A stretch of 64,000 nt of DNA from Desulfuromonadales bacterium. GTDB lineage: Bacteria > Desulfobacterota > Desulfuromonadia > Desulfuromonadales > JACZKF01. Shown in pieces: positions 6,807-55,477 of this stretch. The position numbers and the translations under genes are program-made. The stretch lies in assembly GCA_029289095.1 (NCBI GenBank), contig JARFUG010000005.1:11914-75913 (forward strand), in the 5' to 3' direction. The notes under the pieces are model-generated. The model searched no databases, had not been told where the DNA came from, and saw only the letters and a program-made list of their open reading frames with translations. Position 1 is the stretch's first letter. Every line of letters starts with the position of its first letter.

Positions 6807-6827
6807 ATGCTGCCCTCAGGAACCTCA

Positions 6828-28005: not shown

Positions 28006-28075
28006 CCTTTGAGCTCCCGGCCGACGCATAAGCCGTCGGAACCGGGCTTTTCAAATGAACAAGGAGATCACGAGA

Positions 28076-32236: not shown

Positions 32237-32334
32237 CTGGGGCCGGGTGGGTGGGAGGCTTCATTAAATGTAGGAAAACTTTACAATGAAGCCTTCTCGC
32301 CTAATTTCTGTTGTATTTTCAGATAGATACGATC

Positions 32335-32350
32335 TGGCCCGGAGTTTGCT
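32335..32350 (+). promoter_or_regulatory. sigma-54 (-24/-12) promoter candidate for the PEP-CTERM cargo gene
   Basis: TGGCCC-GGAGT-TTGCT with exact spacing, 47 nt upstream of ATG 32397. A perfect 10-bp inverted repeat AGGCTTCATT (32256-32265) / AATGAAGCCT (32285-32294) lies 41-79 nt upstream. Confidence 0.6.
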
Positions 32351-32396
32351 ATTCAATGAGAACAAACCCCAACCACCCCTTTCCAAAGGAGGGAAC

Positions 32397-33023
32397 ATGA
32401 AAAAATGGATAAGTATTTTGTCGATCGGAATTCTCCTGTGCTTTTCTTCATCAGCATTGGCGCTCACGTATTATTTCGACGTCTCCAACGAATTCGGCAC
32501 ATGGCAGGGGACAGTGCCGCCGGGCTACGGCTCTGTTGAGATCGAAAAGGGAGCCGATGGCTTCATCTATTTCACCGTGACCGCGAACGACAATTTCTTC
32601 ACCCCCAGCGGTCCAGGGCTCACCTGGGACAAGTTCTACTACAATTTCAACGACCAGAAGACCCTCGACACCAGCCTGATCGTCGTCACGGCTCCCGGCA
32701 ACTGGAACGTCGACATCACGAACAGGAACGTCTCGATGTTCGGCCGCTTCGACTATGGCACGCATGGCAGCGCCATCGGGAGCGAGTTTCTCAATCCTCT
32801 TACCTTCTACATCGCCGATCCGAGCCTGGTGGAAACCGATTTCGCATTCGCCAATGCCGACGGCTACCTCTTTGCCGCGCACCTGAGAAGATTCGCTTCG
32901 ATCGACGGCAGGGACAGCACCTTCCTTGCCGTGCGCACCGAACCGATCCCCGAGCCGGCGACAATTCTCCTTCTCGGCTCCGGTCTTCTCGGCCTTTACG
33001 GCGTCCGCAAACGCCGCAGTTGA
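32397..33023 (+). CDS. PEP-CTERM sorting-domain protein (exosortase cargo)
   Basis: ATG 32397 with an AAAGGAGGG RBS. Sec signal MKKWISILSIGILLCFSSSALA. C-terminus EPIPEPATILLLGSGLLGLYGVRKRRS has the PEP motif, a TM helix and a basic cluster, the canonical PEP-CTERM tripartite signal. Confidence 0.9.
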   Translation: MKKWISILSIGILLCFSSSALALTYYFDVSNEFGTWQGTVPPGYGSVEIEKGADGFIYFTVTANDNFFTPSGPGLTWDKFYYNFNDQKTLDTSLIVVTAPGNWNVDITNRNVSMFGRFDYGTHGSAIGSEFLNPLTFYIADPSLVETDFAFANADGYLFAAHLRRFASIDGRDSTFLAVRTEPIPEPATILLLGSGLLGLYGVRKRRS

Positions 33024-33326: not shown

Positions 33327-33406
33327 ACATCCCGTTACGAGTGAACGATGGCGGTCCTCCTTCGAAAGCGGGAATCCGGCCGACCATGCAAGGGAGAAGA
33401 ACCGCA

Positions 33407-36055
33407 ATGAAACTGCTCAAAGTATTGACCTTTGTGATGCTCGTGATCTGTCTGCTTCCCGGGTGCCGCACCCAGACCCGCGAGGCGTTGCTCGAGAAGG
33501 GGGTCGCGCTCGCTCAGGCCGGCGATTTCGATGGTGCGATCGTGTGCTTTCGAAGCGCCCTGGACAGGGATGCCAACTTCTCCGAAGCCCGGTACGAGCT
33601 GGCTCACGCCTATCTGCGGACAGGCCGGTTCGATCGGGCGGAAAACGAACTCGAGAAAGTTCTTCGCCAGGACGCCTCTTTTCCCAGGCTCCCCCTGCTG
33701 CTCGCCGAGGTCTACCTTCACAGCTCCCGCGTCGGGCAGGCGCGCGAAATAATCGAGGAATGGCTCATCGCTCACGGTCACGATGCCGATGCCTATGATC
33801 TTCTCGGGCGCGTGCATATCGCAGCGAACGATTTCATGGCGGCGGAGGAGGCGTTAAGAAAAGCGGTGCGTTTCCAGCCCGAGCACATTTCGGCCCGTAT
33901 CAATCTGGCCGCCCTGCACCTTACCCAGGGGCGCGTCGAAGCGGGGCGGACGATCCTGGAGGAGATCCTCACGGAGGCTCCCGACAACATTCCCGCGCGA
34001 AACATGCTGGCAGGCCTGGAGATCGAAGCCGGAAGGGCGGAGTCGGCTCTGGAGCAGTTCGAGGCGCTGGCGCGAGTCGATCAAAGCAGTCCCGACGCCC
34101 TTTACATGAGCGCTCTGCTGCATCTGCAGATGGGAAACATCGAGGAGGTGAAAAAAATCTCGGCAGTTCTCGATGAGCGTTTTCGCGACCATTCCCTTCC
34201 CCCCCTGCTGAGGGGGCTGATCCTCTATCGCGAGGGGAAATTTACCGAGGCGAGCATCGCTTTTCAGGCGGCCAACCGTATCCGTTCCGATTTGACGGCA
34301 TTCTATTTTCTCGGTCTGAGCTATTACCACCTCGGAAATTTCGAACTCGCCCTCAGCGAAATGCAGCGCATTCTCGATTATCGCCCCTCTTCGGTGCAGC
34401 CCCGCCTCATGAGCGCCGTCATCCTGCTGCAGCAGCAAAGGAGCGGCGACGCCATCCGGGAGGCTGAAATCGCCCTGCGCCACGATCCCCAAAGCGGCGT
34501 CGCGCACAACATTCTCGGCAGCGCCTATCTGGCCCAGGGAAAATACGATCTGGGGATGACGCACCTCGCCCGCGCCACGGCGCTCGATCCAAATCTCGCC
34601 GATGCACATCTTAAAAAAGGGATCTTCAACCTGACGAGAGGGAATTCGGAGTCGGGTGAGAGGGAAATCGTGCAGGCGCTTGCGATCGCACCCGAGGTCC
34701 TCGATACGCGGCTGATCCTGGCGAATCATCACCTGCGCCGGCAGAACTACCCCGCGGCCCTCGGCATACTGGAAGAAGGGCTCCGCGGCCGCCCGCAGGA
34801 TGCCGTCCTGTACAACGTCATGGCCGGCGCCTATTTCTCGATGAACCGGCCCCAAAAAGCACTCGAAGCTCTTCATGCCGCGAGGCGGGCCGACCCCGGA
34901 TACCTGACCCCGGTGTTCAACCTGGCTGCTTACTACGCCGCCGCGGGGGAAGCCGAAACGGCGGCCGCGGAATACCGGAAGATTCTGCAGAAAGACCCGG
35001 CGAACGTGCGCGCTCTTGTCGCCGCCGGAAGGCTTGCAGAGGCGATGGGGAAGGGCAACCAAGCGCTCGGCCATTTCCAGAGAGCCAGAGAGACCGGCGC
35101 CCCCGAGGGCTTCCTCGCCCTGGCGCAATACCAGCTCAGAAGCGGAAACGAAACAGAGGCGGCCTCTCTTCTGGACGAGGGTCTGCGCAGACATCGAAAC
35201 GCTCCGGCGCTTCTCGATGCCAAAGGACGGCTTCTGCTGCGGCAGGGGCGCGCGGAAGAGGCGATCCCCGTCTTCCAGGCCCTGGAGGCGGCAAGTCCCG
35301 GACGCGGTTATCCGGTGTTGGTGCAGATCTATCTGCAGGGCGAGCAGAGGGAAAAGGCCGAAGAGACAGCCCGCAGGGCGACTCGTGAAAACCCCGACCG
35401 CGCGTACGGGTATGGTCTGCAGGCCGCCATCCACGAGGCTGTGGGAGAACATCGGCAGGCGCTGCGGATCCTCGAAGAGGCGCGACGAAGGGTCAGAGAG
35501 CCTCAGCTCGAGATGCAGATCGGACAGCTTCACGAAAGGGCGGGCAATCATCAGAGGGCAAAGGAGAGCTACGTCCGTGTTCTGGAGAGCGCTCCCCGGT
35601 TTCATCCGGCTCTTTTCGCTCTCGCATCCCTCCAGGACCGGGCCGGCAACAAGGCAGAGGCGATGCGCCTCTACCGCCAGGTCCTGGAAATCGAGAGCGA
35701 CTTTACCCCTGCCCTCAACAACCTCGCCTATCTCCAGGCCGAAAATTTCGGCGATCCGGAAGAGGGGCTGAGACTGGCTTTTCAGGCCTATCGAAACGAA
35801 CCGGAACAGCCCGTCGTCATGGATACCCTCGGATATCTTCTGGTGCGCAACGGAAGGGCGACGGAGGCCGTCCCCCTGCTCGAGCAGGCTGCCGCCCTGC
35901 TCCCTGACACGCCCACAGTCCTGTACCACCTCGGGCTCGCCTACAAGGAGAGCGGCCAGAAGGAGAAGGCGCGAGGGGCGCTGCACCGCGCCCTCGAAAT
36001 GGGGGAGTTTCCCGAGTCCCGGCAATCGAGGAAGATTCTGGCGCAGTTGGAATAG
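33407..36055 (+). CDS. TPR-repeat lipoprotein, PEP-CTERM system type (PrsT-like)
   Basis: ATG 33407 with an AGGGAGAAG RBS. Lipoprotein signal MKLLKVLTFVMLVICLLPGC. About 880 aa of consecutive TPR units (A-x3-Y/L-x-G-x3-A periodicity throughout). Confidence 0.85.
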   Translation: MKLLKVLTFVMLVICLLPGCRTQTREALLEKGVALAQAGDFDGAIVCFRSALDRDANFSEARYELAHAYLRTGRFDRAENELEKVLRQDASFPRLPLLLAEVYLHSSRVGQAREIIEEWLIAHGHDADAYDLLGRVHIAANDFMAAEEALRKAVRFQPEHISARINLAALHLTQGRVEAGRTILEEILTEAPDNIPARNMLAGLEIEAGRAESALEQFEALARVDQSSPDALYMSALLHLQMGNIEEVKKISAVLDERFRDHSLPPLLRGLILYREGKFTEASIAFQAANRIRSDLTAFYFLGLSYYHLGNFELALSEMQRILDYRPSSVQPRLMSAVILLQQQRSGDAIREAEIALRHDPQSGVAHNILGSAYLAQGKYDLGMTHLARATALDPNLADAHLKKGIFNLTRGNSESGEREIVQALAIAPEVLDTRLILANHHLRRQNYPAALGILEEGLRGRPQDAVLYNVMAGAYFSMNRPQKALEALHAARRADPGYLTPVFNLAAYYAAAGEAETAAAEYRKILQKDPANVRALVAAGRLAEAMGKGNQALGHFQRARETGAPEGFLALAQYQLRSGNETEAASLLDEGLRRHRNAPALLDAKGRLLLRQGRAEEAIPVFQALEAASPGRGYPVLVQIYLQGEQREKAEETARRATRENPDRAYGYGLQAAIHEAVGEHRQALRILEEARRRVREPQLEMQIGQLHERAGNHQRAKESYVRVLESAPRFHPALFALASLQDRAGNKAEAMRLYRQVLEIESDFTPALNNLAYLQAENFGDPEEGLRLAFQAYRNEPEQPVVMDTLGYLLVRNGRATEAVPLLEQAAALLPDTPTVLYHLGLAYKESGQKEKARGALHRALEMGEFPESRQSRKILAQLE

Positions 36056-36060
36056 GAGGG

Positions 36061-36166
36061 CAGAATCCAGAATCCAGAAACCAGGAGCCAGAAAAGAACC
36101 CTGCACCCTGAATTTTGAACCTATGGGCAAGTCTTTCTCCTGGCTCCTGGATTCTGGCTCCTGGCT
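36061..36166. repeat. heptamer inverted pair (CAGAATC/CAGGAGC family and complement)
   Basis: CAGAATC x2, CAGAAAC, CAGGAGC, CAGAAAA at 36061-36095. The complement block TTCTCCTGGCTCCTGGATTCTGGCTCCTGGCT is at 36135-36166. CCAGGAGCCAG (36081-36091) pairs with CTGGCTCCTGG (36140-36150). Confidence 0.9.
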
Positions 36167-36186
36167 ACTGTTTTAGGAGATATTCA

Positions 36187-37215
36187 ATGCACATTCTGCG
36201 TGTCTACAACCGCGACCCGCTCTGGGACGCTTATGTCGATTCTCATCCCGAGGCGACCAATTATCACCGGCTTGGCTGGAAACGCGTGGTCGAAAGGAGT
36301 TTCGGGCACCAGGGGATCTACCTCGCGGCCCGCGACAATGAAGGGAAGATGCAGGGAATACTCCCCCTCGTCTATCTCAGGAGTCCTCTCTTCGGGAACG
36401 TCATCGTATCGGTTCCCTTTTTCAATTACGGCGGGCTTCTATGCAGTTGCACAGAGGCGGAGCACGCTCTGCTGTCCGAGGCCGAAAAGATCAAAGAGAA
36501 CCTGCGCGTCGGTCACCTCGAGCTTCGGCACATGGGTCGAAGCTCGCCGGGGCTCGTCACAAAGAACCACAAAGTGACGATGATCCTCGATCTGCTTCCG
36601 GACGAGGAGAGCCAGTGGCAGGGGTTCAGCGCAAAGGTTCGCAATCAGGTGAGAAAGGCGCAGAAGGCGGGGCTCGAGACAAAGCTCGGCGGCCTCAGTC
36701 TTCTCGACGGCTTCTACGACGTCTTCTGCAGGAACATGCGCGATCTCGGCACACCAGTGTACGCAAAGGCATTTTTCCGCAACATCCTGCGGGTCTTTCC
36801 CGAGCACACCCGGATTCTGTCGGTTTATCTCAACGGGAAGGTCATCGCTTCGGCTCTCCTCACCTGGTACCGCGACAGTCTCGAAGTCCCATGGGCTTCG
36901 TCGAACCGCGATTACCGCGATCTGTGTCCGAACAATCTGCTGTACTGGGAAGCGATCCGCTTCGCCGTCGGCATGGGGGTGAAGAGCTTTGATTTCGGCC
37001 GCTCCACGCCGGACCACGGGACGTTCCGGTTCAAGAAACAGTGGGGCGCCAGGCCGGTGCAGCTCTACTGGCAATACCTTCTCGGAAGTGAAAAAGAAGT
37101 CCCCGATCTGAGCCCGGCCAACCCCAAGTTCCGCCTGGCGATCAAGGTGTGGCAGAACCTCCCGGTAGGGGTGACAAAGCTTCTGGGACCGTCGATCGTG
37201 CGGAGTATTCCTTGA
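36187..37215 (+). CDS. FemAB-related protein, PEP-CTERM system-associated type
   Basis: ATG 36187 with a TAGGAGA RBS. MHILRVYNRDPLWDAYVDSHPEATNYHRLGWKRVVERSFGH..., FFNYGGLL, and FDFGRSTPDHGTFRFKKQWGA FemAB-fold C-terminus. Confidence 0.85.
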   Translation: MHILRVYNRDPLWDAYVDSHPEATNYHRLGWKRVVERSFGHQGIYLAARDNEGKMQGILPLVYLRSPLFGNVIVSVPFFNYGGLLCSCTEAEHALLSEAEKIKENLRVGHLELRHMGRSSPGLVTKNHKVTMILDLLPDEESQWQGFSAKVRNQVRKAQKAGLETKLGGLSLLDGFYDVFCRNMRDLGTPVYAKAFFRNILRVFPEHTRILSVYLNGKVIASALLTWYRDSLEVPWASSNRDYRDLCPNNLLYWEAIRFAVGMGVKSFDFGRSTPDHGTFRFKKQWGARPVQLYWQYLLGSEKEVPDLSPANPKFRLAIKVWQNLPVGVTKLLGPSIVRSIP

Positions 37216-37221
37216 GAGGCA

Positions 37222-37319
37222 GGAGTTGGGAGTTGGGAGTGAGGAGGCAGAAGGCGGAAGACAGAGGACAGAAGACAGAAGACAAGCCAGGAGCTATGAG
37301 CCAGGAACTATGAGCAATG
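37222..37319. repeat. heptamer array (GGAGTTG, GGAGTGA, GAAGACA, GAGGACA families) merging into a 14-mer AGCCAGGARCTATG duplication at the start codon
   Basis: Fourteen consecutive 7-nt units from 37222. AGCCAGGAGCTATG (37285-37298) and AGCCAGGAACTATG (37299-37312). The second ATG (37310) is the aminotransferase-like gene start. Confidence 0.9.
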
Positions 37320-38545
37320 AGCACAAAAGACGCTTCCGCATAGGACGCACTCTCCCGCCTGCGGCGGCTCCGATTGAGCTTCGCGACATCGTGTGCGGCC
37401 TTCGAGGGTGGTTTCGGGGGGAGAGGGCCGTGCGGGAGATGGAAGAGAGTTTCCGCTCGTTTTTCGGCGTGCGGCACTGCTTTGCCGTTTCCTCGGGCAC
37501 GGCGGCGCTCACCCTCATCCTCGCCGCGCTCAAGGAGAAGCGTCCGCGACGGACCGAGGTCCTCATTCCGGCCTACACTTGTTATTCGGTCCCCTCGGCC
37601 ATCGTGCGGGCCGGATTGAAGGTGGCCCTGTGCGACATCGATCCGAAGACTCTCGATTTCGACTACGGCGAGCTAAAGAGAAAACTCGAGAACCCGCGTC
37701 TGCTGGCCGTCGTGCCGACGCACCTGTTTGGCCTGCCGGCCGATGTGCCCCGACTTCGGGAGATGTTGCGCGACCGCGAAACGACCATCATCGAGGATGC
37801 GGCGCAGGCTATGGGGGGGCAGTTTGGAGGGAGAAAGCTCGGCACCCTGGGAGACGTCGGCTTCTTCAGCCTTGGTCGAGGAAAAGCGCTTTCCACCGTC
37901 GAAGGGGGGATCATTCTCACCAACTGTGACGAGATTGCCGCGAAAATCGCAAGAGAGCAGCGCCGCCTCTACGAGTATGGCGCTCTGGAGATGGGCTCTC
38001 TTGTGCTGTATGCCCTCGTGCTGACGGTTTTCCTGCGCCCCTCCCTCTTCTGGCTGCCGAGTTCCCTGCCTTTTCTGAACCTGGGGAAGACCGTCTTCGA
38101 TCCGACGTTCAGGATGCGAAGGATGAGCGGTTTTCAGGCAGGCCTGGCTCTGCACTGGCGGGAAAAGCTTGAAGCTCTGCAGGCTGCGCGCAGGGGGAGC
38201 GTCCGGCAGTGGTTCGGAGCCCTTATGCCGGCTCAGGCGGCACTCCTGAACGACCCGCCTCCTCTGCTTCGGCTGCCGGGGAGGGCGAAAACGGCGCACG
38301 GTGCATCGAGGCTGCTGTCGGGGGGGGCGAAAAAGGGGCTCGGAGTGTCGGCGGCCTATCCCGACGCCGTCAGCGCCATTCCAGAACTCGCCGGAGACTT
38401 CGCCGGTGAAGATTTTCCGGCAGCCAGGGACCTGGCTCGGCGGATCGTGACCCTGCCGGTCCATACCTACGTCAACAGTGAAGACCGCAGAAAAATTCTC
38501 GGTCTCTTGTCTCAAGTGGAGATGCAATGGCCGCTGTCAGCCTGA
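37310..38545 (+). CDS. DegT/DnrJ/EryC1/StrS-family PLP-dependent enzyme (sugar aminotransferase-like)
   Basis: FAVSSGTAALTLILAAL, VLIPAYTCYSV, IIEDAAQAMGG, FFSLGRGKALS (candidate PLP Lys), and C-terminal VTLPVHTYV. Confidence 0.75.
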   Translation: MSNEHKRRFRIGRTLPPAAAPIELRDIVCGLRGWFRGERAVREMEESFRSFFGVRHCFAVSSGTAALTLILAALKEKRPRRTEVLIPAYTCYSVPSAIVRAGLKVALCDIDPKTLDFDYGELKRKLENPRLLAVVPTHLFGLPADVPRLREMLRDRETTIIEDAAQAMGGQFGGRKLGTLGDVGFFSLGRGKALSTVEGGIILTNCDEIAAKIAREQRRLYEYGALEMGSLVLYALVLTVFLRPSLFWLPSSLPFLNLGKTVFDPTFRMRRMSGFQAGLALHWREKLEALQAARRGSVRQWFGALMPAQAALLNDPPPLLRLPGRAKTAHGASRLLSGGAKKGLGVSAAYPDAVSAIPELAGDFAGEDFPAARDLARRIVTLPVHTYVNSEDRRKILGLLSQVEMQWPLSA

Positions 38546-39369
38546 GCGATAAATGGAAAATAACCGTCCTGCTGGCGGGATGGGCGCTCCTGTTCTACCC
38601 CGTCGTTCCGCCGATGGTGGAGACGTGGCTCAATCACTCGGACAACTCCCACGCCCTACTGGTCCCCCTGATCTCCCTCTATTTCTTCTGGAAAAAGCGC
38701 GACACTCTGGGCGAGATCGGCATTTCAGGCTCCATGGCAGGGTGGATGATCCTGGCCGCGAGCCTTGCCGTTTATCTCGTGAGTTTCGCCGGCGGAATCG
38801 CTTTTTTCGCCCGGCTGATGATGATCACCTCCCTTGCGGGGCTGCTGTGGTGCTGCCTCGGTGCGCAGATGGTGCGGCATCTGGCGTTCCCGCTGGCCTT
38901 TCTGTGCTTCATGGTGCCGGTCCCCGATTCGATCCTCACGATGGTGTCCTTTCCGTTGCAACTGATGGCGAGCAAGATCTCCGCTGACCTGATCAGCCTC
39001 TGCGCGATCCCGGTGTACCGGGAGGGGAACATGCTCCATTTTCTGCAGACCCGTCTCGAGGTCGCCGAGGCCTGCAGCGGCATACGCTCCATCATGTCCC
39101 TGGCAATGCTGAGTGTCCTGTTCGCCTACGTGTCCGAGTCGGGCCGCTGGCAGAAGATCGTCCTCGTTCTCTCGGCTCTGCCCATTGCGCTGGCGGCCAA
39201 CATCGTGCGCGTCACCGGTACGGGGATACTGGCCCACTTCTATGGCGACCGGGCCGCGCAGGGCTTTCTCCACGATTTTTCCGGCATGGCCGTCTTCGCC
39301 CTGGGGATGGCGATGCTCTACTTCGAATACCAACTGCTCAACCGAATCGGCAAAAGGAACAGACGATGA
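38527..39369 (+). CDS. xrtA: exosortase (EpsH family; XrtA-like by locus context)
   Basis: 280 aa, about 8 TM segments. NSHALLVPLISLYFFW (YSHGxLVP-like). Catalytic Cys motif EVAEACSGIRSIMSL. Arg motif ALAANIVRVTGTGILA. His in FLHDFSGMAVF. The XrtA subtype is inferred from neighbouring marker genes and was not tested. Confidence 0.88.
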   Translation: MAAVSLSDKWKITVLLAGWALLFYPVVPPMVETWLNHSDNSHALLVPLISLYFFWKKRDTLGEIGISGSMAGWMILAASLAVYLVSFAGGIAFFARLMMITSLAGLLWCCLGAQMVRHLAFPLAFLCFMVPVPDSILTMVSFPLQLMASKISADLISLCAIPVYREGNMLHFLQTRLEVAEACSGIRSIMSLAMLSVLFAYVSESGRWQKIVLVLSALPIALAANIVRVTGTGILAHFYGDRAAQGFLHDFSGMAVFALGMAMLYFEYQLLNRIGKRNRR

Positions 39370-40022
39370 TCGAGAACCGCAGATTTTTTCTCGCACTGTG
39401 CACGCTGGCGGCCGCCCTCATAATCGTCTTGAGCCTCTCTCAGCGCGGTGTGCCGGTCGTGCTCAACACCAATCTCGAAAACATCCCCATGGAGATCTCC
39501 GGCTATCGGGGAGTCGAGGATGTTTTCCCACCGTGGGTCTACGAGACGCTCAATGCCGATAAACATGTCTATCGCCACTACCGCTCGCCCGAAGGTGCGC
39601 AGGTGAGTTTGTACATCGGCTATTACGGAACGGCCAAGGGGGGGCGCACAAGTCACAACCCTTATGGTTGTCTTCCGAGCGTCGGCTGGACCATCGTGGA
39701 GCGGGGAATCGTGCAGGTCAGTCCCAGCTACCAGCCGCAGGGGGTTCGCGTCAACTACGTCGTCGCCAGCAAGGACGATATAAAGAACGTCATGCTCCAT
39801 TGGTACCAGAGCGCCGGAACCCGTGTTCTGGCCAGCGGAATCCAGCAGAACCTGCAGCGCTTTACCGGCAGGGTCCTTTACAACCGCAATGACGGGGCCT
39901 ACGTGCAGGTCAACGCATTCGTCCGAGAACAGGATGTCCCAAAGGCCAGGGAAGTCGTCACCGAGTTTGCCGGCGATATTCTGGAATTTCTCCCCAGACA
40001 TTGGCCAGACGAAGCGATCTGA
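39366..40022 (+). CDS. epsI: EpsI-family exosortase-associated protein
   Basis: ATGA overlap with the exosortase gene. N-terminal TM anchor FFLALCTLAAALIIVL. About 200-aa periplasmic domain with YIGYYGTAKGGRTSHNPYGCLPSVGW. Size and position are as described for EpsI. Confidence 0.75.
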   Translation: MIENRRFFLALCTLAAALIIVLSLSQRGVPVVLNTNLENIPMEISGYRGVEDVFPPWVYETLNADKHVYRHYRSPEGAQVSLYIGYYGTAKGGRTSHNPYGCLPSVGWTIVERGIVQVSPSYQPQGVRVNYVVASKDDIKNVMLHWYQSAGTRVLASGIQQNLQRFTGRVLYNRNDGAYVQVNAFVREQDVPKAREVVTEFAGDILEFLPRHWPDEAI

Positions 40023-40058
40023 TCGCATCGAAGCCATCACGCGCAAGGAATCGATGAA

Positions 40059-41228
40059 ATGAGAATTGCCGGAAAAGTGCAAAAGGCGGGGGCGCTGCTG
40101 TGGTCGGATCTCAAAGGCCTGGCGAAAAGAGAGATTGATTTTCACCGGGCGCGGCCACGAACCGCGATTTTGATTCTGACCTACCGATGTGATTCGAGAT
40201 GCAAAACCTGCTCCATGTGGCGCAGGGATGCCGGCGGCGAAATGGAGAAGGAACTCGAGCTGTCTCAATGGAAAGCGATCGTAGACAAACTGAGCAATGA
40301 AGGAATCCGGGTCTTCGAACTCTTCGGCGGGAACATCCTGCTGAGGAAAGAACTAGTGATGGAGCTTACGAGATATCTGTTCGGCAAGGGTGCGATCATT
40401 CACATCCCCACCAATCAACTGGGACTCGACGACGAAATCGCAGAGGCGATGGTGAATTACGTCGACACCGTCTATCTCTCCACGGACGGGACGGGAAACA
40501 CGCAGGACGCGATCAGGGGTATCGACGGTTCGGAGCGTATCGGCAGAGACGCCGTCGACAGGCTGCTTATGAAGCGCAGGGCTGCCCGAAGGCAGAGAGG
40601 GCGACTGAGAATCGTATGCAACTGCACCGTGTCGAAATATAACTTCGATCGCCTCGAAAGAATCGTCGAATACGCCGAGAGCAAATGTTTCGACGAAGTG
40701 CATTTTGAATACGCGGGGGAATTTCGGAGACCCACCGTCGAGAACTCCAGAATACTCGATATCACCCCGGAGCCTCACTACCTGAATGAGGGCGAATCGA
40801 TTCTGGTCAACCGGGAACAGGCTGTCGTCATCAAGGAAACCCTGCGAAAGATACGTCGAAAATACGCAAGCGGCCCTTTAAAGATCACGACGCTGAATAT
40901 CGATTCCATGTCGCTCGCAAACCTGTATAAGGGGAGCATACCCCACAAAAAATGCTATCTGGAGCGTTGTGAAGTCACCGTGGACCCTTACGGGAACATG
41001 GTTGCCTGTCCCTTCATCACCAACTTCATACTGGGAAATTGTCTCGAGGGAGAATTCACCAAAGTATGGAACGGCCCAAGACACAAGGTGTTCAGAAAGG
41101 CCCAGAACTCCGGTCGTCTCCCCATGTGCAGGAACTGCATTCTCGGAGTCCAGTGGAATCACGGAATCGCCAAGTCCCTGCATCGGATCTATCTCACCCG
41201 ATTCAGACCCGCCATTACAGGGACGTAG
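40059..41228 (+). CDS. radical SAM enzyme with C-terminal SPASM/twitch-like Cys-rich domain
   Basis: ILTYRCDSRCKTCSMW (CX3CX2C). The C-terminal segment CYLERCEVTVDPYGNMVACP...GNC...MCRNC includes CX12C with GX4C, plus CX2C. AAGGAA RBS. Confidence 0.85.
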   Translation: MRIAGKVQKAGALLWSDLKGLAKREIDFHRARPRTAILILTYRCDSRCKTCSMWRRDAGGEMEKELELSQWKAIVDKLSNEGIRVFELFGGNILLRKELVMELTRYLFGKGAIIHIPTNQLGLDDEIAEAMVNYVDTVYLSTDGTGNTQDAIRGIDGSERIGRDAVDRLLMKRRAARRQRGRLRIVCNCTVSKYNFDRLERIVEYAESKCFDEVHFEYAGEFRRPTVENSRILDITPEPHYLNEGESILVNREQAVVIKETLRKIRRKYASGPLKITTLNIDSMSLANLYKGSIPHKKCYLERCEVTVDPYGNMVACPFITNFILGNCLEGEFTKVWNGPRHKVFRKAQNSGRLPMCRNCILGVQWNHGIAKSLHRIYLTRFRPAITGT

Positions 41229-41233
41229 CTGTC

Positions 41234-42361
41234 ATGAAGTTGCGAGGGAGCGTAGAGACAAAAACGAGTCTGAAACTTGGGCGCCTGGCATCGGTCGAGG
41301 AGCTGACAGGCGTCGCCGGCGCCTGGGACGATCTGTGGGAGAGAAGCGAGGTCTGTTCGCCCAGAGCCAGGGCATCCCTTCTTGCCCTGTGGATCAAGAC
41401 ATTTTCCAAGGACGGCGATTTCCAGGCGCTGACCGTAGAAGCCGACGGGAAACTCGTAGCGGCACTCCCGCTGATCCTCCAAAAATATAAGGGGTTCCTC
41501 AAGGTGGGAACGGTCGCCTCGAATCTGATCGCCGCAGGAGGAGACTTCCTTCTCGATCCGGAGTGCGATGTCGGACAAGTGCTGAAGCTGACGGCGTCGG
41601 CTCTGTCGAGGCTTCCAGTGGCTTTCCTGCATTTCGACGGCATCCCCGTGGAGGAGCAGAGGTGGAGGGGGCTTCTGGGGGCGATGGCCGCGGATGGGCA
41701 GCTCATCGACGTGTCCGAGCAGTACAGGGTAGGGCGGGTGTCGATTGAAGGACGATGGGCGGATTACGAGGCAGGGCTTTCGCGAAATCATCGCCGAAAT
41801 CGGCGTCGCCAGGCAAAACTCCTCGATGAATGCGGAGGGGCGACCTTGAGGGTCTTCTCCCGAATCTCCGCCGATGAGCTCGAGCCCCTTCTCCGAAGAG
41901 GCTTCGAGGTCGAAGACCGCAGTTGGAAGGGGAAAGAAGGAACTTCGGTACTGAAGTCAGCCGGGATGTTCCAGTTCTTCTGCCGCGAGGGAGCCTGCCT
42001 GTCCGAGCGGGGGGAGCTCGAACTGGTTTTTCTCGAGCACGGCGCAACGCCGATGGCCTTTCTGTACGGATGGAACTCCAAGGGGATGCGCTTCGCTCCC
42101 AAAGTTGGTTATGACGAGTCCTTCGAGAGATATGGACCGGGGCAACTGCTGATGATGAATTTCATCCAACGCCTTCATGAGGAGCCGCTCCCTCTCAAAC
42201 TCGATTTTCACGGGCCGCTGATGCCCTGGACGCAGAGCTGGGCGACGGAATCCTATCCCCTGGGGCGGATTGTCGCAACAACGCATCACCCCTTGAGCAG
42301 GTCTCTTTTCCGTCTCAACTTCAATGTCAAGCCTCTTCTCAAGGGGAGCCGAAGGGGTTGA
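41234..42361 (+). CDS. FemAB-fold GNAT acyltransferase (CelD/BioF2-like)
   Basis: Start at ATG 41234. FEVEDRSWKGKEGTSV and PKVGYDESFERYGPGQLLM motifs shared with the other paralogs. Confidence 0.7.
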   Translation: MKLRGSVETKTSLKLGRLASVEELTGVAGAWDDLWERSEVCSPRARASLLALWIKTFSKDGDFQALTVEADGKLVAALPLILQKYKGFLKVGTVASNLIAAGGDFLLDPECDVGQVLKLTASALSRLPVAFLHFDGIPVEEQRWRGLLGAMAADGQLIDVSEQYRVGRVSIEGRWADYEAGLSRNHRRNRRRQAKLLDECGGATLRVFSRISADELEPLLRRGFEVEDRSWKGKEGTSVLKSAGMFQFFCREGACLSERGELELVFLEHGATPMAFLYGWNSKGMRFAPKVGYDESFERYGPGQLLMMNFIQRLHEEPLPLKLDFHGPLMPWTQSWATESYPLGRIVATTHHPLSRSLFRLNFNVKPLLKGSRRG

Positions 42362-42388
42362 TTGACTCGTTGTGAATCGAGGTCGACG

Positions 42389-43600
42389 ATGAATCAAGCA
42401 GAAGTCCAGATCCTTAACGTTCCAGACGTGCAGATTGTCGAGAGCGACCGGAAACTCATGACGATCAGGGTGGTTGTCGGATTGGATGGGATGGACGAAA
42501 TCAGAAACGAATGGATGAACCTGACGAAGCTGCAGGGCAATCGCGGGATTCATCAGGCCTTTGGATGGGTCCGGGCCGCCTACGAGACGCTTTCGAGAGG
42601 CGATAAGCCGTATATCGTCGTTCTGAGGACCGACCGTGGGAAAATCGTTGCCATAGCTCCATTGGCGCTTGGATACGGAAAATACAGGGGAATCACGATC
42701 CGGAAGCTGGGGTTCGTCAGGAACGACCAGAGCCCGTGCAACGACTTCATTCTCCATCCCGGGTTCGAAAAAGATGCGATGTTCGTTCTGCTGGAGCACC
42801 TGAACACATTCATGGATTGGGAGATGGTCGACCTGCACCAGGTGGACATCGACGGCCACACGGGGAAGGCCATCAAGAGCCTCATGGAAAGATTCCCTTA
42901 CTGCTCGTACGAGAAAAAGAACAGACAGAGCCCCTATCTCGTCTTCGAGAAAGGCTGGAACGAATTCTGGGGTGGAAAATCGAGGAGACTCAAAAAGTCG
43001 ATCAACAACAAGCTGAACCGGCTGGGGATGGACTACCAGGTCGAGAAGCGAAGGATTTCCGACGCCACGGCGCAGGAATTGGCAGAAATCGTCCGGATTT
43101 CGCAAAAGAGCTGGAAGCGGCGCATCGGCGCAGAACTCGCGGTCTGCAGCGACAACTGGAAATTCTACACGGAGATCTGCAACCATTTCGGCCCCGAGGG
43201 GTGTATCCATGTCTGGATCCTGAGAATCGAAGGGATTCCCGTCGCCTTCGAGTTCCATGTCGAGTACGGAGGAGTCCAGTATCCGATAAAAGCCGACTAT
43301 GACGACGACTTCAAAAAGCTCTCTCCCGGCTCCATTCTCGAATACGAAATCATCAGGAGATCTTTTAACGATCCAGGGTTGTCAGCCTACCATTCATGCG
43401 CACATAGCTATGATTATCTTCTCAAATGGACCCAAACAATCAGGGATCATCGGAACTATGAATTTTTTGCGCCAAAGATCAAGACGATAATATTGTATAA
43501 ATTCGAATACGAATTGATGAAGCTTGTGCGAAAAAGTCGATTGTACAGGTGGTACAAGGAAAGACAGTGCAGGGAGGGATTGCAAGGGGAAGCGCTATGA
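42389..43600 (+). CDS. FemAB-fold GNAT acyltransferase (CelD/BioF2-like)
   Basis: ATG 42389 (GAGG RBS), or TTG 42362. ISQKSWKRRIG and IKADYDDDFKKLSPGSILEYEII motifs. The 3' third is visibly AT-richer than the rest of the locus. Confidence 0.7.
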   Translation: MNQAEVQILNVPDVQIVESDRKLMTIRVVVGLDGMDEIRNEWMNLTKLQGNRGIHQAFGWVRAAYETLSRGDKPYIVVLRTDRGKIVAIAPLALGYGKYRGITIRKLGFVRNDQSPCNDFILHPGFEKDAMFVLLEHLNTFMDWEMVDLHQVDIDGHTGKAIKSLMERFPYCSYEKKNRQSPYLVFEKGWNEFWGGKSRRLKKSINNKLNRLGMDYQVEKRRISDATAQELAEIVRISQKSWKRRIGAELAVCSDNWKFYTEICNHFGPEGCIHVWILRIEGIPVAFEFHVEYGGVQYPIKADYDDDFKKLSPGSILEYEIIRRSFNDPGLSAYHSCAHSYDYLLKWTQTIRDHRNYEFFAPKIKTIILYKFEYELMKLVRKSRLYRWYKERQCREGLQGEAL

Positions 43601-44286
43601 AAGCCGAAATGGGTATTTTGGCTAAAACAATGGGTGAATACAGTAAAAAAGGTTTGAAAGGAGTTCTACATAAAGTTCTATTAAAGACACGGAAGTATGT
43701 TTTTTACACGACTAAATCGACATGGTACCAATTCGATATGGCCGACAGCTTGACAAGAATAGACAATATGTTTGGATTGGATTGCGAATTTCTTGTCTCT
43801 GACAAATCCACTTTAATAGAATGGCTCAAAGTCAATCATAGTATTTACCCGTGGATCTATTTTGAAAAAGAAATTGAATCGGCAATAAGAAATGACCATG
43901 TTTTTGCTGTTGTCAGTCATAAGAAATCATTTGTAGGGTATATAAAAGTTGGAATCGGTTCAACTTATATTCACGATTTTGATGTAAACATTGTTTTTCC
44001 GCCTCGAACAGCATTCGTTTACGACACATTTGTTCTGCCCGAGTGGCGCGGGAAGAATGTGGCTGTTTATGCTCTCCTCACCCTGGCCGATTACCTGAAG
44101 CACAGGGGATTCGAGAGAATTCTCTGCCACATCGAAGACTGGAATCAGTCTTCTGTGCGTACATTCAGTAAAGCGTACTTCTATCCCAGAAATACGGTCA
44201 GGTTCATTCGAATTGCAGAGATGGGATTCTATGTCCTGGACAGGCGCCGCCTCTACAGAAAACTCGAACCTTATGTCGCTGGATGA
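43597..44286 (+). CDS. GNAT-family N-acetyltransferase (tentative), in an AT-rich patch
   Basis: ATGA overlap at 43597-43600. YDTFVLPEWRGKNVAVYALLTLADYLKHRGFERILCHIEDWNQSSVRTFSKAYF fits GNAT motifs A and B. The 5' two-thirds of the gene has a markedly AT-rich composition. Confidence 0.55.
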   Translation: MKAEMGILAKTMGEYSKKGLKGVLHKVLLKTRKYVFYTTKSTWYQFDMADSLTRIDNMFGLDCEFLVSDKSTLIEWLKVNHSIYPWIYFEKEIESAIRNDHVFAVVSHKKSFVGYIKVGIGSTYIHDFDVNIVFPPRTAFVYDTFVLPEWRGKNVAVYALLTLADYLKHRGFERILCHIEDWNQSSVRTFSKAYFYPRNTVRFIRIAEMGFYVLDRRRLYRKLEPYVAG

Positions 44287-44316: not shown

Positions 44317-45354
44317 ATGTATCTTATCGTCAGTATCGATGTTGAGGAGGATAATTGGGGCGAGTACGACCCCCTCGACTATTCCGTCGAAAACCTCAGG
44401 AAGGTGCCGGGTCTTCAGGATATTTTCGATCGCTTCGAGATCACGCCGACCTATCTCGTCAACTATCCCGTGGCGAGCGATCCCTGGGCCGTCGAGATGT
44501 TTTCCCGTTACGCCGAACTCGGCAGGTGCGAGATCGGGATGCACTGCCATCCCTGGAACACCCCGCCGTTCTCCGACACAGCACATCAAGGCGACAGCAT
44601 GCTGTGCAACCTGCCTGCCGGGGTGCAGTTCGAGAAGCTAAACTTCCTGCACGAGACGATCCGGAAGAACATCGGCGTCGCTCCGGTCTCCTTCCGGGCG
44701 GGTCGCTGGGGGTTCGGTCCTGAAACTGCCGCAGTCCTCGATCGTCTCGGATACAAGGTAGACACTTCGGTTACCCCTTTCGTGAGCTGGAAAGGATTGG
44801 GAGGTCCCGACTATACCGATTTCGGACTGGCGCCTTTCCGTTTCCGCTGCGACGACATCGCGCAGGCAAACGAAAAGGGTCCCCTCCTGCAGGTGCCTGC
44901 GACGGTCGGCTTTCTTCAGTCCAGCTACTCTCTTTGCCGTCTGATGAAAAAGATGGCCGAGAACCGTATCGGAAGGATGATTCACCTCAAGGGAATCCTG
45001 TATCGCTGCGGATTTTTGAACCAGGCCTGGCTCTCTCCGGAGCTCTCGGATGTGCGAACCATGATCAGGCTGGCCCAGAGGATCGAAAAGCTGAATTACC
45101 CCTGCCTGAACATGACCTTCCATTCAAGCAGCCTGAAAGAGGGGCTCAGCCCCTTCGTCGGGATCGGCGAAGAAGCTCGTTTCCTCGAGAAGATAAAGGC
45201 GTTCCTGTCGTTTGCACGGCAGTCCGGATATGCCTCGGTGAGCCTGAAGGAGTTTGCGCAGCGCTATTCATGTGCAATCGAGATCGATCGGTCCGGCGCT
45301 GCGCGGAGCGGGGCCGGAGGACGCAATGCTCACCCGCAGGCCGCGAATGAATGA
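44317..45354 (+). CDS. polysaccharide deacetylase-like protein (WalW-type, divergent CE4)
   Basis: MYLIVSIDVEEDNWGEYD parallels the TVDVEDYF start of the 9603 deacetylase. CEIGMHCHPWNTPPF and VSFRAGRWGFG motifs. Confidence 0.55.
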   Translation: MYLIVSIDVEEDNWGEYDPLDYSVENLRKVPGLQDIFDRFEITPTYLVNYPVASDPWAVEMFSRYAELGRCEIGMHCHPWNTPPFSDTAHQGDSMLCNLPAGVQFEKLNFLHETIRKNIGVAPVSFRAGRWGFGPETAAVLDRLGYKVDTSVTPFVSWKGLGGPDYTDFGLAPFRFRCDDIAQANEKGPLLQVPATVGFLQSSYSLCRLMKKMAENRIGRMIHLKGILYRCGFLNQAWLSPELSDVRTMIRLAQRIEKLNYPCLNMTFHSSSLKEGLSPFVGIGEEARFLEKIKAFLSFARQSGYASVSLKEFAQRYSCAIEIDRSGAARSGAGGRNAHPQAANE

Positions 45355-45429: not shown

Positions 45430-46575
45430 TTGAGCAGGTCAGTGAAACTGGAAGTCCTTGCCGAATGCTGTGATCACGAGTCGCTGATCCATCAGTGGGA
45501 TGAGATCCTGGCGCAGAGCGTTTCGGCCCGGCTCTTCGAAAGCCCTCTATGGGTGCTGAACTACTGGAGGTATCGCTGCGGAGCAAAGAATGCGCTCAGC
45601 TTCATCACCGGGAGAGACGAAGATGGCAGAATGGTCGCAATCCTCCCCTTCGTCAAGAAGCCGCAGCCCGGGGCGCCGTTCCTTTCCACCTGGGAATGCG
45701 CGCATTCCACCGGTGAGTATGAATCGAACTGGACCTGTCATCCCGATTATGCCGGACGATTCGCATCGGCCCTCCTGGATCACCTGAACAGTCACCGGCA
45801 TCTCTGGTACCAGATGAAGATGACGGTCGTGCGGGAAGACTCCTCGGCGCTGACGGCTCTGCTGCCCGCATGCAGACAAAGCGGCTTCTCGATCATCTCG
45901 GCACCCGGCCGGGAGGTGCCTTTTATTCCCATCACCGATTCAGCATCCCTCGAGGACGTGGTCGACGGCAAGTACAGGCGGGAAATGAGGAGACGTCAGA
46001 ACAAGCTGGAGAAGGTGAACCCCTTGAAATTCGAGCTTTACTGTGATCAGGAGGGGCTCGATCCGGCCCTTGACGAATTCTTCGCGGTGGAGGCTTCCGG
46101 GTGGAAGGGGCGTGGAGGGAGCGCCATTCGCGACGACGACTCGGCGGAGCGGTTCTGGAGACAACTTTCGCATGATGCGGCCCGCCGCAGGCAATTGAGG
46201 CTGCATCTTCTGCGTTCGGGAGATGGGGTCATCGCAGGGCAGCTCGGGATCGTCTTCGCAAAGACCTACTATTGTCTGAAGATCGGCTATGACGACAGAT
46301 ACGGGGAATTCGGCCCGGGAGCCCTGACGACCCGCGAGGCGGTCCGGCACTGCCTCGAAGATCCGCAGATCGATGTCTATGACTTTGCAGGCGCGGCGCT
46401 GCCTTACATGAGGAATTGGACGGACCGGACCTACAGGACTTGGAGCATTCAGATCGGCTCTACCCATGCGGCGCTGGGGGGCGTTTTCGATCTTGTCCGA
46501 CACGGCCGGGGGACGCTGCGCTCCCTTCGGCGGGCGATCACAGGGAGGAATGACAATGTCTCCGAAAACACCTGA
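45430..46575 (+). CDS. FemAB-fold GNAT acyltransferase (CelD/BioF2-like)
   Basis: FFAVEASGWKGRGGSAI and LKIGYDDRYGEFGPGALTT motifs. Start uncertain (TTG 45430 or GTG 45442). Confidence 0.7.
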   Translation: MSRSVKLEVLAECCDHESLIHQWDEILAQSVSARLFESPLWVLNYWRYRCGAKNALSFITGRDEDGRMVAILPFVKKPQPGAPFLSTWECAHSTGEYESNWTCHPDYAGRFASALLDHLNSHRHLWYQMKMTVVREDSSALTALLPACRQSGFSIISAPGREVPFIPITDSASLEDVVDGKYRREMRRRQNKLEKVNPLKFELYCDQEGLDPALDEFFAVEASGWKGRGGSAIRDDDSAERFWRQLSHDAARRRQLRLHLLRSGDGVIAGQLGIVFAKTYYCLKIGYDDRYGEFGPGALTTREAVRHCLEDPQIDVYDFAGAALPYMRNWTDRTYRTWSIQIGSTHAALGGVFDLVRHGRGTLRSLRRAITGRNDNVSENT

Positions 46576-49000: not shown

Positions 49001-49037
49001 GCGCGGGACGTGAACGATTCGACTGGAAGGACCCGTG

Positions 49038-50285: not shown

Positions 50286-50306
50286 GGTGATGAAGGATGA
50301 TAAGGG

Positions 50307-51683: not shown

Positions 51684-51713
51684 GCAATCATCTCAGGTTT
51701 AAACGAGGAACGA

Positions 51714-55440: not shown

Positions 55441-55477
55441 TGGCGAACAAAAGCCCATCCGCCGGAGAGAACCGTCC

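Follow-up and report, generated by a model that had tools for sequence, protein, structure and literature searches.

The radical SAM gene that lies directly after xrtA and epsI in 64,000 nucleotides of Desulfuromonadales DNA (the window) is, on balance, probably the central member of a conserved cassette for glycan tailoring and not a protein-sorting accessory. Its product is predicted to hold two clusters, a SAM-binding [4Fe-4S] cluster and, in a twitch domain, a single auxiliary [4Fe-4S] cluster whose ligands are all Cys. The cassette has 3 to 4 genes, encoding a FemX-like transferase, a radical SAM enzyme with a BtrN-type twitch domain, an N-acetyl- or N-formyl-transferase, and often a DUF362 protein, with a CE4 deacetylase often present as a further partner. 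These genes, and not the exosortase, are the conserved partners of the radical SAM enzyme. The cassette is undescribed and widely conserved, being absent from curated families and from the literature found.

The window locus is an XrtA/PEP-CTERM system with XrtA, EpsI, PrsT, a PEP-CTERM substrate, and associated EPS genes. It has in common with the canonical XrtA/PEP-CTERM EPS locus XrtA, EpsI, PrsT, the TIGR03019 FemAB protein, TIGR03013, TIGR03027, TIGR03015, TIGR03016, and a PEP-CTERM protein; these 5 TIGR models, together with TIGR03109, TIGR02914, and TIGR02917, score above cutoff in the window. The difference is that neither the radical SAM enzyme nor the cassette falls in any curated XrtA-associated family. 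The genes are as follows.

32286..33023, plus strand: PEP-CTERM protein, putative exosortase cargo, C-terminus ...IPEPATILLLGSGLLGLYGVRKRRS, with PEP-CTERM family matches at the C-terminus
33341..36055, plus strand: PrsT, XrtA/PEP-CTERM system TPR lipoprotein (TIGR02917, 543.5 bits, cutoff 312)
36115..37215, plus strand: FemAB-family XrtA-associated protein, a hallmark gene (TIGR03019, 403.3 bits, cutoff 260)
37226..38545, plus strand: DegT/DnrJ/EryC1-type sugar aminotransferase (PF01041, E = 3.8e-50)
38527..39369, plus strand: exosortase XrtA, 280 aa (TIGR03109, 223.1 bits, cutoff 208; PF09721, E = 5e-75)
39366..40022, plus strand: EpsI, exosortase-associated, DUF3485, 218 aa (TIGR02914, 98.8 bits; PF11984, E = 4.3e-44)
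40059..41228, plus strand: radical SAM enzyme with predicted BtrN-type twitch domain, 389 aa (PF04055 and PF13186)
41234..42361, plus strand: PF13480 FemAB-like tandem-GNAT transferase, paralog 1 (E = 4.3e-23)
42362..43600, plus strand: PF13480 FemX-fold transferase, paralog 2 (E = 1.1e-21; database gene start 42389, 403 aa)
43549..44286, plus strand: small GNAT N-acetyltransferase, start codon uncertain (PF00583, E = 3e-11)
44317..45354, plus strand: divergent CE4-like polysaccharide deacetylase (no Pfam match; hhalign)
45430..46575, plus strand: PF13480 FemAB-like transferase, paralog 3 (E = 2.2e-29)
46620..47912, plus strand: second DegT-family aminotransferase (PF01041, E = 3.6e-22)
47912..49000, plus strand: PF13480 FemAB-like transferase, paralog 4 (E = 9.1e-20)
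49035..56659, plus strand: remainder of the same-strand EPS assembly block, with GT4 glycosyltransferases, a PglK-like ABC flippase, a LMW phosphotyrosine phosphatase, and an O-antigen-ligase-like protein (NCBIfam and Pfam matches)

The first aminotransferase likely starts at 37310 to give a 411-aa product, as in the L086 gene call. The hallmark FemAB gene falls by protein clustering into a separate cluster (16), distinct from the PF13480 genes of the cassette. In the original prediction, xrtA and epsI share an ATGA and a radical SAM gene coding for 389 aa begins 36 nt further on, and the coordinates agree exactly: the ATG is at 39366-39368 and the TGA at 39367-39369, epsI ends at 40022, and the 36-nt spacer up to the radical SAM ATG at 40059 holds a Shine-Dalgarno-like AAGGAA. 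The small GNAT gene, the window's copy of the conserved downstream partner, sits in a low-GC island (GC 41.5%). The CE4-like protein is aligned by hhalign to the XrtA-type deacetylase cluster (171 columns, probability 93.6%, E = 2e-7), and has homologs in L001, L012, L084, and 8 metagenome loci.

By its CX3CX2C motif and a PF04055 score of 45.6 bits (cutoff 29.5), the product of 40059..41228 is a member of the radical SAM superfamily. The motif, already pointed out in the original prediction, is C44, C48, and C51 within RCDSRCKTCSMW, and C44-X3-C48-X2-C51 is kept in 98% of 112 homologs. PF13186 (SPASM) is also matched over residues 299-360, with 39.1 bits (cutoff 21.5). In the C-terminal part, CYLERCEVTVDPYGNMVACP...GNC...MCRNC, the only invariant auxiliary cysteines are C299, C317, C357, and C360, present in 100% of the 112 homologs with the conserved spacing C299-X12-G-X4-C317 and C357-X2-C360. 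The other cysteines singled out there at the start do not hold up, C304 being kept in 5% and the "GNC" cysteine in 1%, and there is no conserved cysteine beyond C360 among these homologs. With only 4 auxiliary cysteines conserved, the full 7-Cys SPASM motif (CX9-15GX4C...CX2CX5CX3C...C, 2 auxiliary clusters) is ruled out. The AF2 model (pLDDT 88) has a single helix (residues 2-30) followed by the core strand at 35-39.

A twitch domain is a shortened SPASM domain in which 4 Cys ligate one auxiliary [4Fe-4S] cluster; the auxiliary cluster of BtrN, which carries out a two-electron oxidation, likewise has 4 Cys ligands (PMC9012708). The profile of our family matches BtrN residues 159-242 (46.6 bits overall, domain E = 7e-9) and aligns C299/C317/C357/C360 with the BtrN cluster ligands C169/C187/C232/C235. 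Because only 4 auxiliary cysteines are invariant and they align with the 4 ligands of BtrN, the C-terminal domain is predicted to be a BtrN-type one-cluster twitch domain and not a full SPASM domain. The earlier label of SPASM/twitch was thus imprecise in its first half, although PF13186 is indeed passed. BtrN (2-deoxy-scyllo-inosamine dehydrogenase of the butirosin pathway; PDB ID: 4M7S/4M7T) shares the 4 twitch cysteines as C-X17-C...C-X2-C, has an amino-cyclitol, sugar-type small-molecule substrate, and is partnered with a DegT/StrS-type aminotransferase, of which the window locus has 2 genes. The cores, however, are barely alignable at 6.4 bits, BtrN has 250 aa whereas the radical SAM enzyme has 389 with an N-terminal helix and a long insert, and the setting is an EPS locus with acyl transferases as partners, in place of an aminoglycoside cluster. 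On the core score and the EPS context, identification as a BtrN ortholog (DOIA dehydrogenase) was rejected.

The gene neighborhood was surveyed in 116 related loci (36 from genomes and 80 from metagenomes) spanning more than 10 phyla; the genome-derived set is the window, the 36 genome loci, L083, and L084 (n = 39). PF13480 is encoded in 32/36 genome loci, mostly immediately 5' of the radical SAM gene, and in 58/80 metagenome loci. A small GNAT is encoded in 19/39 genome-derived and 46/80 metagenome loci and a formyltransferase in 8/39 and 18/80, in the genome-derived set mostly directly 3' of the radical SAM gene, and DUF362 occurs in 17/39 and 29/80. Gaps beside the radical SAM gene are mostly under 30 nt, or the genes overlap. 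The parts are also found fused, PF13480 with radical SAM in L008, L017, P0152, P0165, P0169, and P0173, radical SAM with GNAT in P0153 and P0157, PF13480 with GNAT in L007 and L034, and all cassette parts in the single 1183-aa protein P0176. Around the cassette are glycan genes, namely GT4, a Wzx-type flippase, CE4 deacetylases, DegT, and NeuB. L002/L099, a member of the clade, stands alone and outside an EPS context.

In the window, the product of 42362..43600 is the best match to the gene that in most loci immediately precedes the radical SAM gene, and is identified from this as the ortholog of the conserved partner. Its AF2 model has the tandem-GNAT FemX fold, with top Foldseek matches to 1xf8, 7z6a, and 4ii9 (FemX) at E = 1e-13 and TM 0.67; its nearest PDB entries are all aminoacyl-tRNA-dependent transferases, namely FemX, FemA, Sbb17/Sba18 (in complex with the amino sugar streptothrisamine), and MprF. 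The fold, which at that TM score is common to FemX of W. viridescens, is also that of Sbb17/Sba18, where the reaction is an aminoacyl-tRNA-dependent acylation of streptothrisamine. Identity to the FemX/Sbb17-type enzymes is only 10-13%, however, and the partner belongs to PF13480, not PF02388. Since acyl-CoA-using tandem GNATs, such as the Foldseek match 2wpw, have the same fold, use of aminoacyl-tRNA by the partner is no more than putative.

The pathway that we propose would operate on the cytoplasmic side. Its substrate would be a sugar of the EPS repeat unit, linked to a nucleotide or to undecaprenyl, and its product an N-aminoacylated amino sugar of that unit. In a first step, either a CE4 enzyme would de-N-acetylate the sugar to expose an amine, or the radical SAM enzyme would oxidize C-OH to C=O in the manner of BtrN and a DegT aminotransferase would aminate the ketone. 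DegT is scarce near the cassette (within 10 kb in only ~8/39 genome-derived and 7/80 metagenome loci), and "oxidize then transaminate" therefore has weaker synteny support than the acyl-transferase link. The amine would then be acylated by the FemX-like enzyme, probably with an aminoacyl group from aminoacyl-tRNA, and the new amine would be capped by the GNAT or the formyltransferase. Finally, the radical SAM enzyme would take a hydrogen atom from the sugar or the new substituent and pass the second electron to the auxiliary cluster, for a net two-electron oxidation. Gene presence, the Cys pattern, domain homology, synteny, the fusions, and the fold matches are observed, and from them the substrate, the dependence on aminoacyl-tRNA, the sequence of steps, and the type of reaction are inferred.

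Twitch enzymes acting on aminoglycosides can invert stereocentres, and EpeE/YydG are peptide epimerases. An epimerase in place of an oxidase, which would invert a sugar stereocentre or convert the tRNA-delivered L-aminoacyl substituent to the D form with a Cys thiol returning the hydrogen atom, seems unlikely here, although it has something in its favor. In 90% of homologs a core beta-strand carries an additional cysteine, C187; EpeE is among the fold matches, the fusions to the FemX-like enzyme suggest action on the product of that enzyme, and bacterial glycans with D-aminoacyl N-substituents are known. Against this, C187 is missing from the whole subclade P0108-P0117, which retains the cassette, and the twitch domain has its nearest counterpart in BtrN, which is an oxidase.

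In 9/36 genome and 15/80 metagenome loci, the 10 kb around the radical SAM gene include a gene for an exosortase or EpsI, usually on the same strand and 1-2 genes ahead of it; the count is 0/44 for loci of more distant radical SAM/SPASM relatives. Of the loci with at least 3 kb of upstream flank, 9/30 from genomes and, by a hand tally, ~11/~39 from metagenomes have an exosortase within 10 kb. Where the flank suffices, an XrtA-like or XrtW exosortase thus precedes the radical SAM gene by a few genes in ~29% of loci and is missing from ~70%. The adjacency is far above chance and, within these 10 kb, not obligatory. It recurs across phyla, which removes the concern that it might be unique to one genome, and the family of the enzyme is not a housekeeping one. 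The pairing was unfamiliar to the original prediction and does appear to be undescribed for XrtA loci: every NCBIfam model stays below its cutoff (MftC comes highest, with 61.8 bits against 265), and full-text literature searches found no account of a radical SAM gene within an exosortase or PEP-CTERM locus. Unlike the canonical locus, the cassette is also found beside XrtW, and more often without a nearby exosortase.

The exosortase counts would also suit a maturase that, like anSME, QhpD, and sactisynthases, modifies its target, here PEP-CTERM cargo or the acyl-intermediate of an exosortase, as would the PEP-CTERM genes near the cassette in the window, L007, L008, L017, and L020. The whole-protein sequence and fold matches to the core are best with the SPASM maturases SkfB, anSME, SuiB, CteB, PqqE, and MftC, which the PF13186 match also recalls; the closest solved structures, SkfB, anSME, and SuiB, give TM 0.54-0.59, and the sugar and nucleotide enzymes DesII, BlsE, and viperin are no better. 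We nevertheless consider a protein or peptide substrate improbable. The RRE, an N-terminal winged helix-turn-helix that the solved RiPP maturases SkfB and CteB carry and whose role is described in PMC8326336, is absent from the AF2 model, since only a 30-residue helix precedes the core. The surveyed loci share no small-ORF family that could be an adjacent precursor-peptide gene, and the cassette contains no conserved small ORF or cargo gene; a RiPP radical SAM maturase was rejected on these two absences. One auxiliary cluster is indicated, by 4 auxiliary cysteines and not 7 or more, in contrast to 2 clusters in anSME, PqqE, and SuiB, and with no sulfatase or conserved target gene near the radical SAM gene in the surveyed loci, an anSME-type protein maturase was rejected as well. 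The fused partners are small-molecule acyl transferases, and the compartments differ, PEP-CTERM processing being expected at or outside the membrane and soluble radical SAM enzymes operating in the cytoplasm. Of the substrates first offered for the enzyme, cargo or sugar, the cargo is thus disfavored, also by the ~70% of loci without an exosortase, and a sugar or glycan is favored by acyl-transferase partners and fusions amid glycosyltransferases, CE4 deacetylases, and flippases.

FemXAB build the pentaglycine used by sortase A, and by analogy the cassette might build the exosortase acceptor: a lipid-linked sugar would be given a modified aminoacyl branch, and to this branch XrtA or XrtW would attach PEP-CTERM proteins. 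The order CE4 deacetylase, exosortase, PF13480 (single or duplicated), radical SAM is seen repeatedly in different phyla, with both XrtA-like exosortases and XrtW, 5 FemAB-like genes surround xrtA in the window, and FemAB (TIGR03019) and deacetylase genes are curated XrtA hallmarks, but a transpeptidase needs the very amine on which the conserved N-acetyl- or N-formyl-transferase would place a cap, and most cassette loci have no nearby exosortase, which makes this reading very improbable. That gene order is tighter than mere co-residence in EPS loci needs, and in this it counts against glycan tailoring, our best explanation.

Most likely, then, the cassette decorates a sugar of the exopolysaccharide rather than maturing sorted proteins, and we propose that it is so often directly 3' of an exosortase gene because the polysaccharide it tailors would be that of exosortase-type EPS loci.

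The entire window is a canonical XrtA/PEP-CTERM EPS locus, laid out as follows.

2013-3371, TIGR03013 priming transferase
3385-4197, TIGR03027 exporter
6807-7997, TIGR03015 ATPase
8019-9254, TIGR03016 outer-membrane protein
32286-33023, PEP-CTERM protein
33341-36055, PrsT
36115-37215, TIGR03019 FemAB
37226-38545, DegT aminotransferase
38527-40022, xrtA (38527-39369) and epsI (39366-40022)
40059-41228, radical SAM enzyme, 389 aa
41234-42361, PF13480 FemAB-like protein
42362-43600, PF13480 FemAB-like protein, the conserved partner
43549-44286, small PF00583 GNAT
44317-45354, ORF without a Pfam match
45430-46575, PF13480 FemAB-like protein
46620-47912, second DegT
47912-49000, PF13480 FemAB-like protein
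49035-56659, GT4s, PglK-like ABC flippase, LMW-PTP and O-antigen-ligase-like protein

The original prediction had drawn attention to a radical SAM gene behind xrtA and epsI, and all three genes are where it placed them, with xrtA and epsI overlapping by ATGA (ATG at 39366-39368, TGA at 39367-39369) and a spacer of 36 nt between epsI and the 389-aa ORF. XrtA scores 223.1 bits against the curated model TIGR03109, which has a cutoff of 208, and EpsI passes TIGR02914 and PF11984. The ORF at 44317-45354 finds no match in a sequence search of the PDB; hhalign rules it out as a divergent DUF362 (probability 0.2%) and instead aligns it to XrtA-type CE4 deacetylases (probability 93.6%, E = 2e-7). Just 5' of the PEP-CTERM gene, 28055-29983 and 30316-32169 encode paralogous proteins of about 620-640 aa with lipoprotein-like N-termini (LILVGCG, LLLACGG), one of which has a right-handed beta-helix/NosD-like region. 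The low-molecular-weight phosphotyrosine phosphatase gene (53534-54109) lies between those for the ABC flippase and the O-antigen-ligase-like protein.

The 389-aa protein passes PF04055 at 45.6 bits and the SPASM model PF13186 at 39.1 bits, and every NCBIfam equivalog falls well short of its threshold, with the mycofactocin maturase model highest at 61.8 versus 265 bits. A database search finds about 120 close relatives, nearly all metagenomic and with generic names only. Across 112 full-length homologues, the C44/C48/C51 motif (CX3CX2C) is conserved in 98%, the core C187 in 90%, and C299, C317, C357 and C360 in 100%, giving the C-terminal pattern C-X12-G-X4-C ... C-X2-C. The additional C-terminal cysteines named in the original prediction are not part of it, with C304 conserved in only 5% and the cysteine of the GNC element in only 1%. 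This pattern corresponds to just the first half of the SPASM motif. A full SPASM assignment is rejected on the cysteine conservation, and of the earlier SPASM/twitch reading the twitch part stands.

When the family profile is run against all PDB sequences, its match in BtrN is the C-terminal domain, residues 159-242 of 4M7S, at 46.6 bits overall and a domain E of 7e-9, and the four invariant cysteines line up with BtrN C169, C187, C232 and C235, numbered as in the aligned PDB chain. BtrN, the founding twitch enzyme, binds a single auxiliary [4Fe-4S] cluster through four Cys ligands and oxidizes an amino-cyclitol by two electrons (PMC9012708). These sequence features class the 389-aa protein as a BtrN-like twitch radical SAM enzyme with two predicted clusters, though it is not a BtrN orthologue. 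In its AF2 model (pLDDT 88.3) a single N-terminal helix (residues 2-30) leads into the first strand of the core, and an RRE domain is absent. Foldseek against the PDB gives superfamily-level matches only (TM 0.5-0.6), in which the peptide maturases SkfB, anSME and SuiB are mixed with the sugar and nucleotide enzymes DesII, BlsE and viperin, so the substrate class cannot be read from the fold alone.

A gene-neighbourhood survey, as the original prediction had proposed, finds conserved neighbours and a recurring pairing with exosortase. Scanning one genome per GTDB species gave 36 loci with a family member and, for comparison, 44 loci whose radical SAM/SPASM genes are all distant relatives; 80 further family loci came from metagenomes. 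Each homologue was viewed with 10 kb on either side, genes in foreign loci were called with a simple ORF caller, and neighbours were counted by presence in the locus. Clustering used 39 genome-derived loci, namely the window, the 36 genome loci, L083 and L084. The hosts include Desulfuromonadales, Desulfobacterales, Nitrospirota, Verrucomicrobiota, Phycisphaerae, Gemmatimonadota, Zixibacteria, Ignavibacteriales, Cytophagia and Omnitrophota among others. The enzyme set is found in the EPS loci of many phyla, most of them anaerobic.

A PF13480 gene is present in 32/36 genome loci and 58/80 metagenome loci, usually directly upstream of the radical SAM gene. A small GNAT (19/39 genome-derived, 46/80 metagenome) or, replacing it, a formyltransferase (8/39 and 18/80) usually takes the position directly downstream where it occurs, and a DUF362 gene (17/39 and 29/80), from a family in one Pfam clan with the LarA racemases (PMC11770544), usually the next one. 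On either side of the radical SAM gene the intergenic gap is in most cases below 30 nt or negative. Genes for CE4 deacetylases, GT4s and Wzx-type flippases often lie nearby too, and Pfam-annotated contigs have the make-up of typical Wzx/Wzy-type polysaccharide loci. No small-ORF family common to the surveyed loci was found. Formyl_trans_N occupies the GNAT position in L084 (11056-12123), L027 (11049-11915), L091-L095, L140, L142, L143 and others, which implies that the same amine is capped alternatively by N-formyl or N-acetyl.

In Deltaproteobacteria bacterium RBG_13_43_22 (L002/L081/L082/L099), a close family member (10001-11149, 48% identity) is solitary: a MalQ-like 4-alpha-glucanotransferase gene lies on one side and unrelated genes on the other, with PF13480, GNAT and EPS genes all absent within 10 kb; this is either an orphan copy or a gene with a different role. 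In the window, a sharp low-GC island at 43350-44100 (34-40% versus about 57% on either side) covers the 3' end of 42362-43600 and most of the small GNAT gene. That gene has a GC of 41.5% and a GC3 of 42%, where every neighbour has a GC3 of about 70%, and this suggests a recent replacement or acquisition of this one cassette gene.

Genuine fusion proteins join the radical SAM, PF13480 and GNAT families into one group under single-linkage clustering, and the families were therefore separated with a two-sided coverage filter. PF13480 is fused to radical SAM plus twitch in L008 (Gemmatimonadota, 924 aa), in L017 (Phycisphaerae, 798 aa) and in P0152, P0165, P0169 and P0173; radical SAM is fused to a PF00583 GNAT in P0153 and P0157, and PF13480 to GNAT in L007 and L034. 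The single metagenomic polypeptide P0176 (1183 aa) runs through PF13480, PF00583, radical SAM, twitch and a second GNAT, a natural fusion that would be handy for biochemistry. The fusions, found in several combinations, are strong evidence that the three activities work on one substrate.

As for the exosortase, it or EpsI is within 10 kb in 9/36 genome loci versus 0/44 distant-relative loci (Fisher p = 4e-4, indicative only as the control taxa differ) and in 15/80 metagenome loci. Where at least 3 kb of upstream sequence is present, an exosortase is found in 9/30 genome loci and, by hand tally, about 11 of about 39 metagenome loci, together about 29%. Nine exosortase genes per 0.54 Mb is more than 10x a baseline of one or a few per genome, that baseline being our estimate and not a measurement. 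The exosortase-linked loci are spread over the entire radical SAM tree. They typically run CE4 deacetylase, exosortase (EpsI being a gene of its own or fused to it), one or two PF13480 genes, radical SAM, GNAT and DUF362. The linked exosortases are XrtA or XrtA-like, except for XrtW with a fused EpsI domain in L006 (4021-5577, 527 bits) and L027 (6063-7592, 534 bits; cutoff 425), so the cassette is linked to two exosortase subtypes or more. That epsI and the radical SAM gene are immediate neighbours in the window is due only to the PF13480 genes being downstream of the radical SAM gene; L001, the nearest relative (63% identity), L004 and L012 each have one PF13480 gene separating the two. The pairing is thus recurrent and non-random, but not the defining association.

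The conserved PF13480 partner finds no match in a sequence search of the PDB. Its AF2 model (pLDDT 87.5) has aminoacyl-tRNA-dependent transferases as its best structural matches, namely Weissella FemX at E = 1e-13 and TM 0.67, S. aureus FemX and FemA, Sbb17/Sba18 (solved with the amino sugar streptothrisamine), and MprF and aminoacyl-phosphatidylglycerol synthases. The acyl-CoA-binding tandem GNAT 2wpw also matches. With TIGR03019 and four PF13480 paralogues, the window has five FemAB-like genes in one EPS operon, which hints at a multi-residue branch built stepwise or at several different acylations.

The radical SAM gene is tightly coupled, including by fusion, to a FemX-fold transferase and an N-acetyl- or N-formyl-transferase, in a setting of glycan-assembly genes. 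We consider it probable that the cassette tailors a glycan, and infer that this would be an EPS repeat-unit sugar modified in the cytoplasm. Both fixed partners would act on amines, and CE4 deacetylases or DegT aminotransferases, which would produce sugar amines, often lie nearby. The simplest scheme, of four reactions, would begin with the making of a sugar amine, to which the FemX-like enzyme adds an acyl group, probably an aminoacyl one; the GNAT or formyltransferase supplies the cap, and the radical SAM enzyme abstracts an H atom and oxidizes by two electrons in the manner of BtrN. This oxidation might precede the amine, its ketone product then being aminated by DegT, or might follow acylation and act on that product; the fusions favor a radical SAM step adjacent to that of the FemX-like enzyme. 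Oxidation as the specific chemistry is tentative, about half as probable as glycan tailoring itself. The main chemical alternative is epimerization, for which C187 could be the H-atom donor, although this residue is missing from one subclade.

Two exosortase-related roles are doubtful. In one, the cassette would give an EPS sugar an aminoacyl branch, N-capped and modified by the radical SAM enzyme, which in exosortase loci XrtA/XrtW would use as acceptor or recognition element for PEP-CTERM attachment. The order CE4, Xrt, Fem-like, radical SAM recalls FemXAB and sortase A of Gram-positive bacteria, a parallel for a Fem-built acceptor branch if this reading is true, and the window has its five Fem-like genes, but the conserved N-capping enzyme speaks against a free nucleophile. 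We give it little probability, including a variant in which an uncapped sibling branch from the locus's other FemAB-like paralogues is the acceptor. Equally improbable is a maturase of PEP-CTERM cargo: the exosortase enrichment, PEP-CTERM genes nearby in five loci and the superfamily-level resemblance would fit, but there is no RRE, one auxiliary cluster and no conserved peptide or cargo partner, the fusions are with acyl transferases, and most loci have no exosortase nearby. By the features tested, the enzyme is not a RiPP maturase. A housekeeping role is rejected on the lack of a near-cutoff NCBIfam equivalog and the EPS context in nearly all loci.

Carbohydrate-acting radical SAM twitch enzymes are known from antibiotic pathways. 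None of the curated families covers the present enzyme, and neither they nor the literature searched tie a twitch radical SAM enzyme to exopolysaccharide assembly. Full-text searches bear out the earlier remark that the pairing was not described for XrtA loci, with no account found of such a gene in an exosortase or PEP-CTERM locus; the radical SAM genes named in a Geobacter transcriptome paper are unrelated and stand apart from its mention of epsH. The family and its cassette are undescribed and would extend radical SAM carbohydrate tailoring to EPS loci.

What is defined here is a compact, fusion-supported enzyme set of FemX-like transferase, twitch radical SAM enzyme and N-acyl transferase, often directly behind an exosortase gene. 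It suggests a specific chemistry that can be tested, in which an amino sugar would carry an N-aminoacyl group and be modified by radical action. The same arrangement is available in a cultured organism, Geothermobacter hydrogeniphilus HR-1 (L004), the only cultured host in the survey, with the order FemAB, DegT, XrtA, EpsI, PF13480, radical SAM, DUF362. The link to exosortase is real but partial. If the cassette does build the proposed aminoacyl branch, it would make a glycan decoration of a kind so far without an assigned enzyme set, and an exosortase link that proved functional would have a bearing on the long-standing problem of the target to which exosortase cargo is attached.
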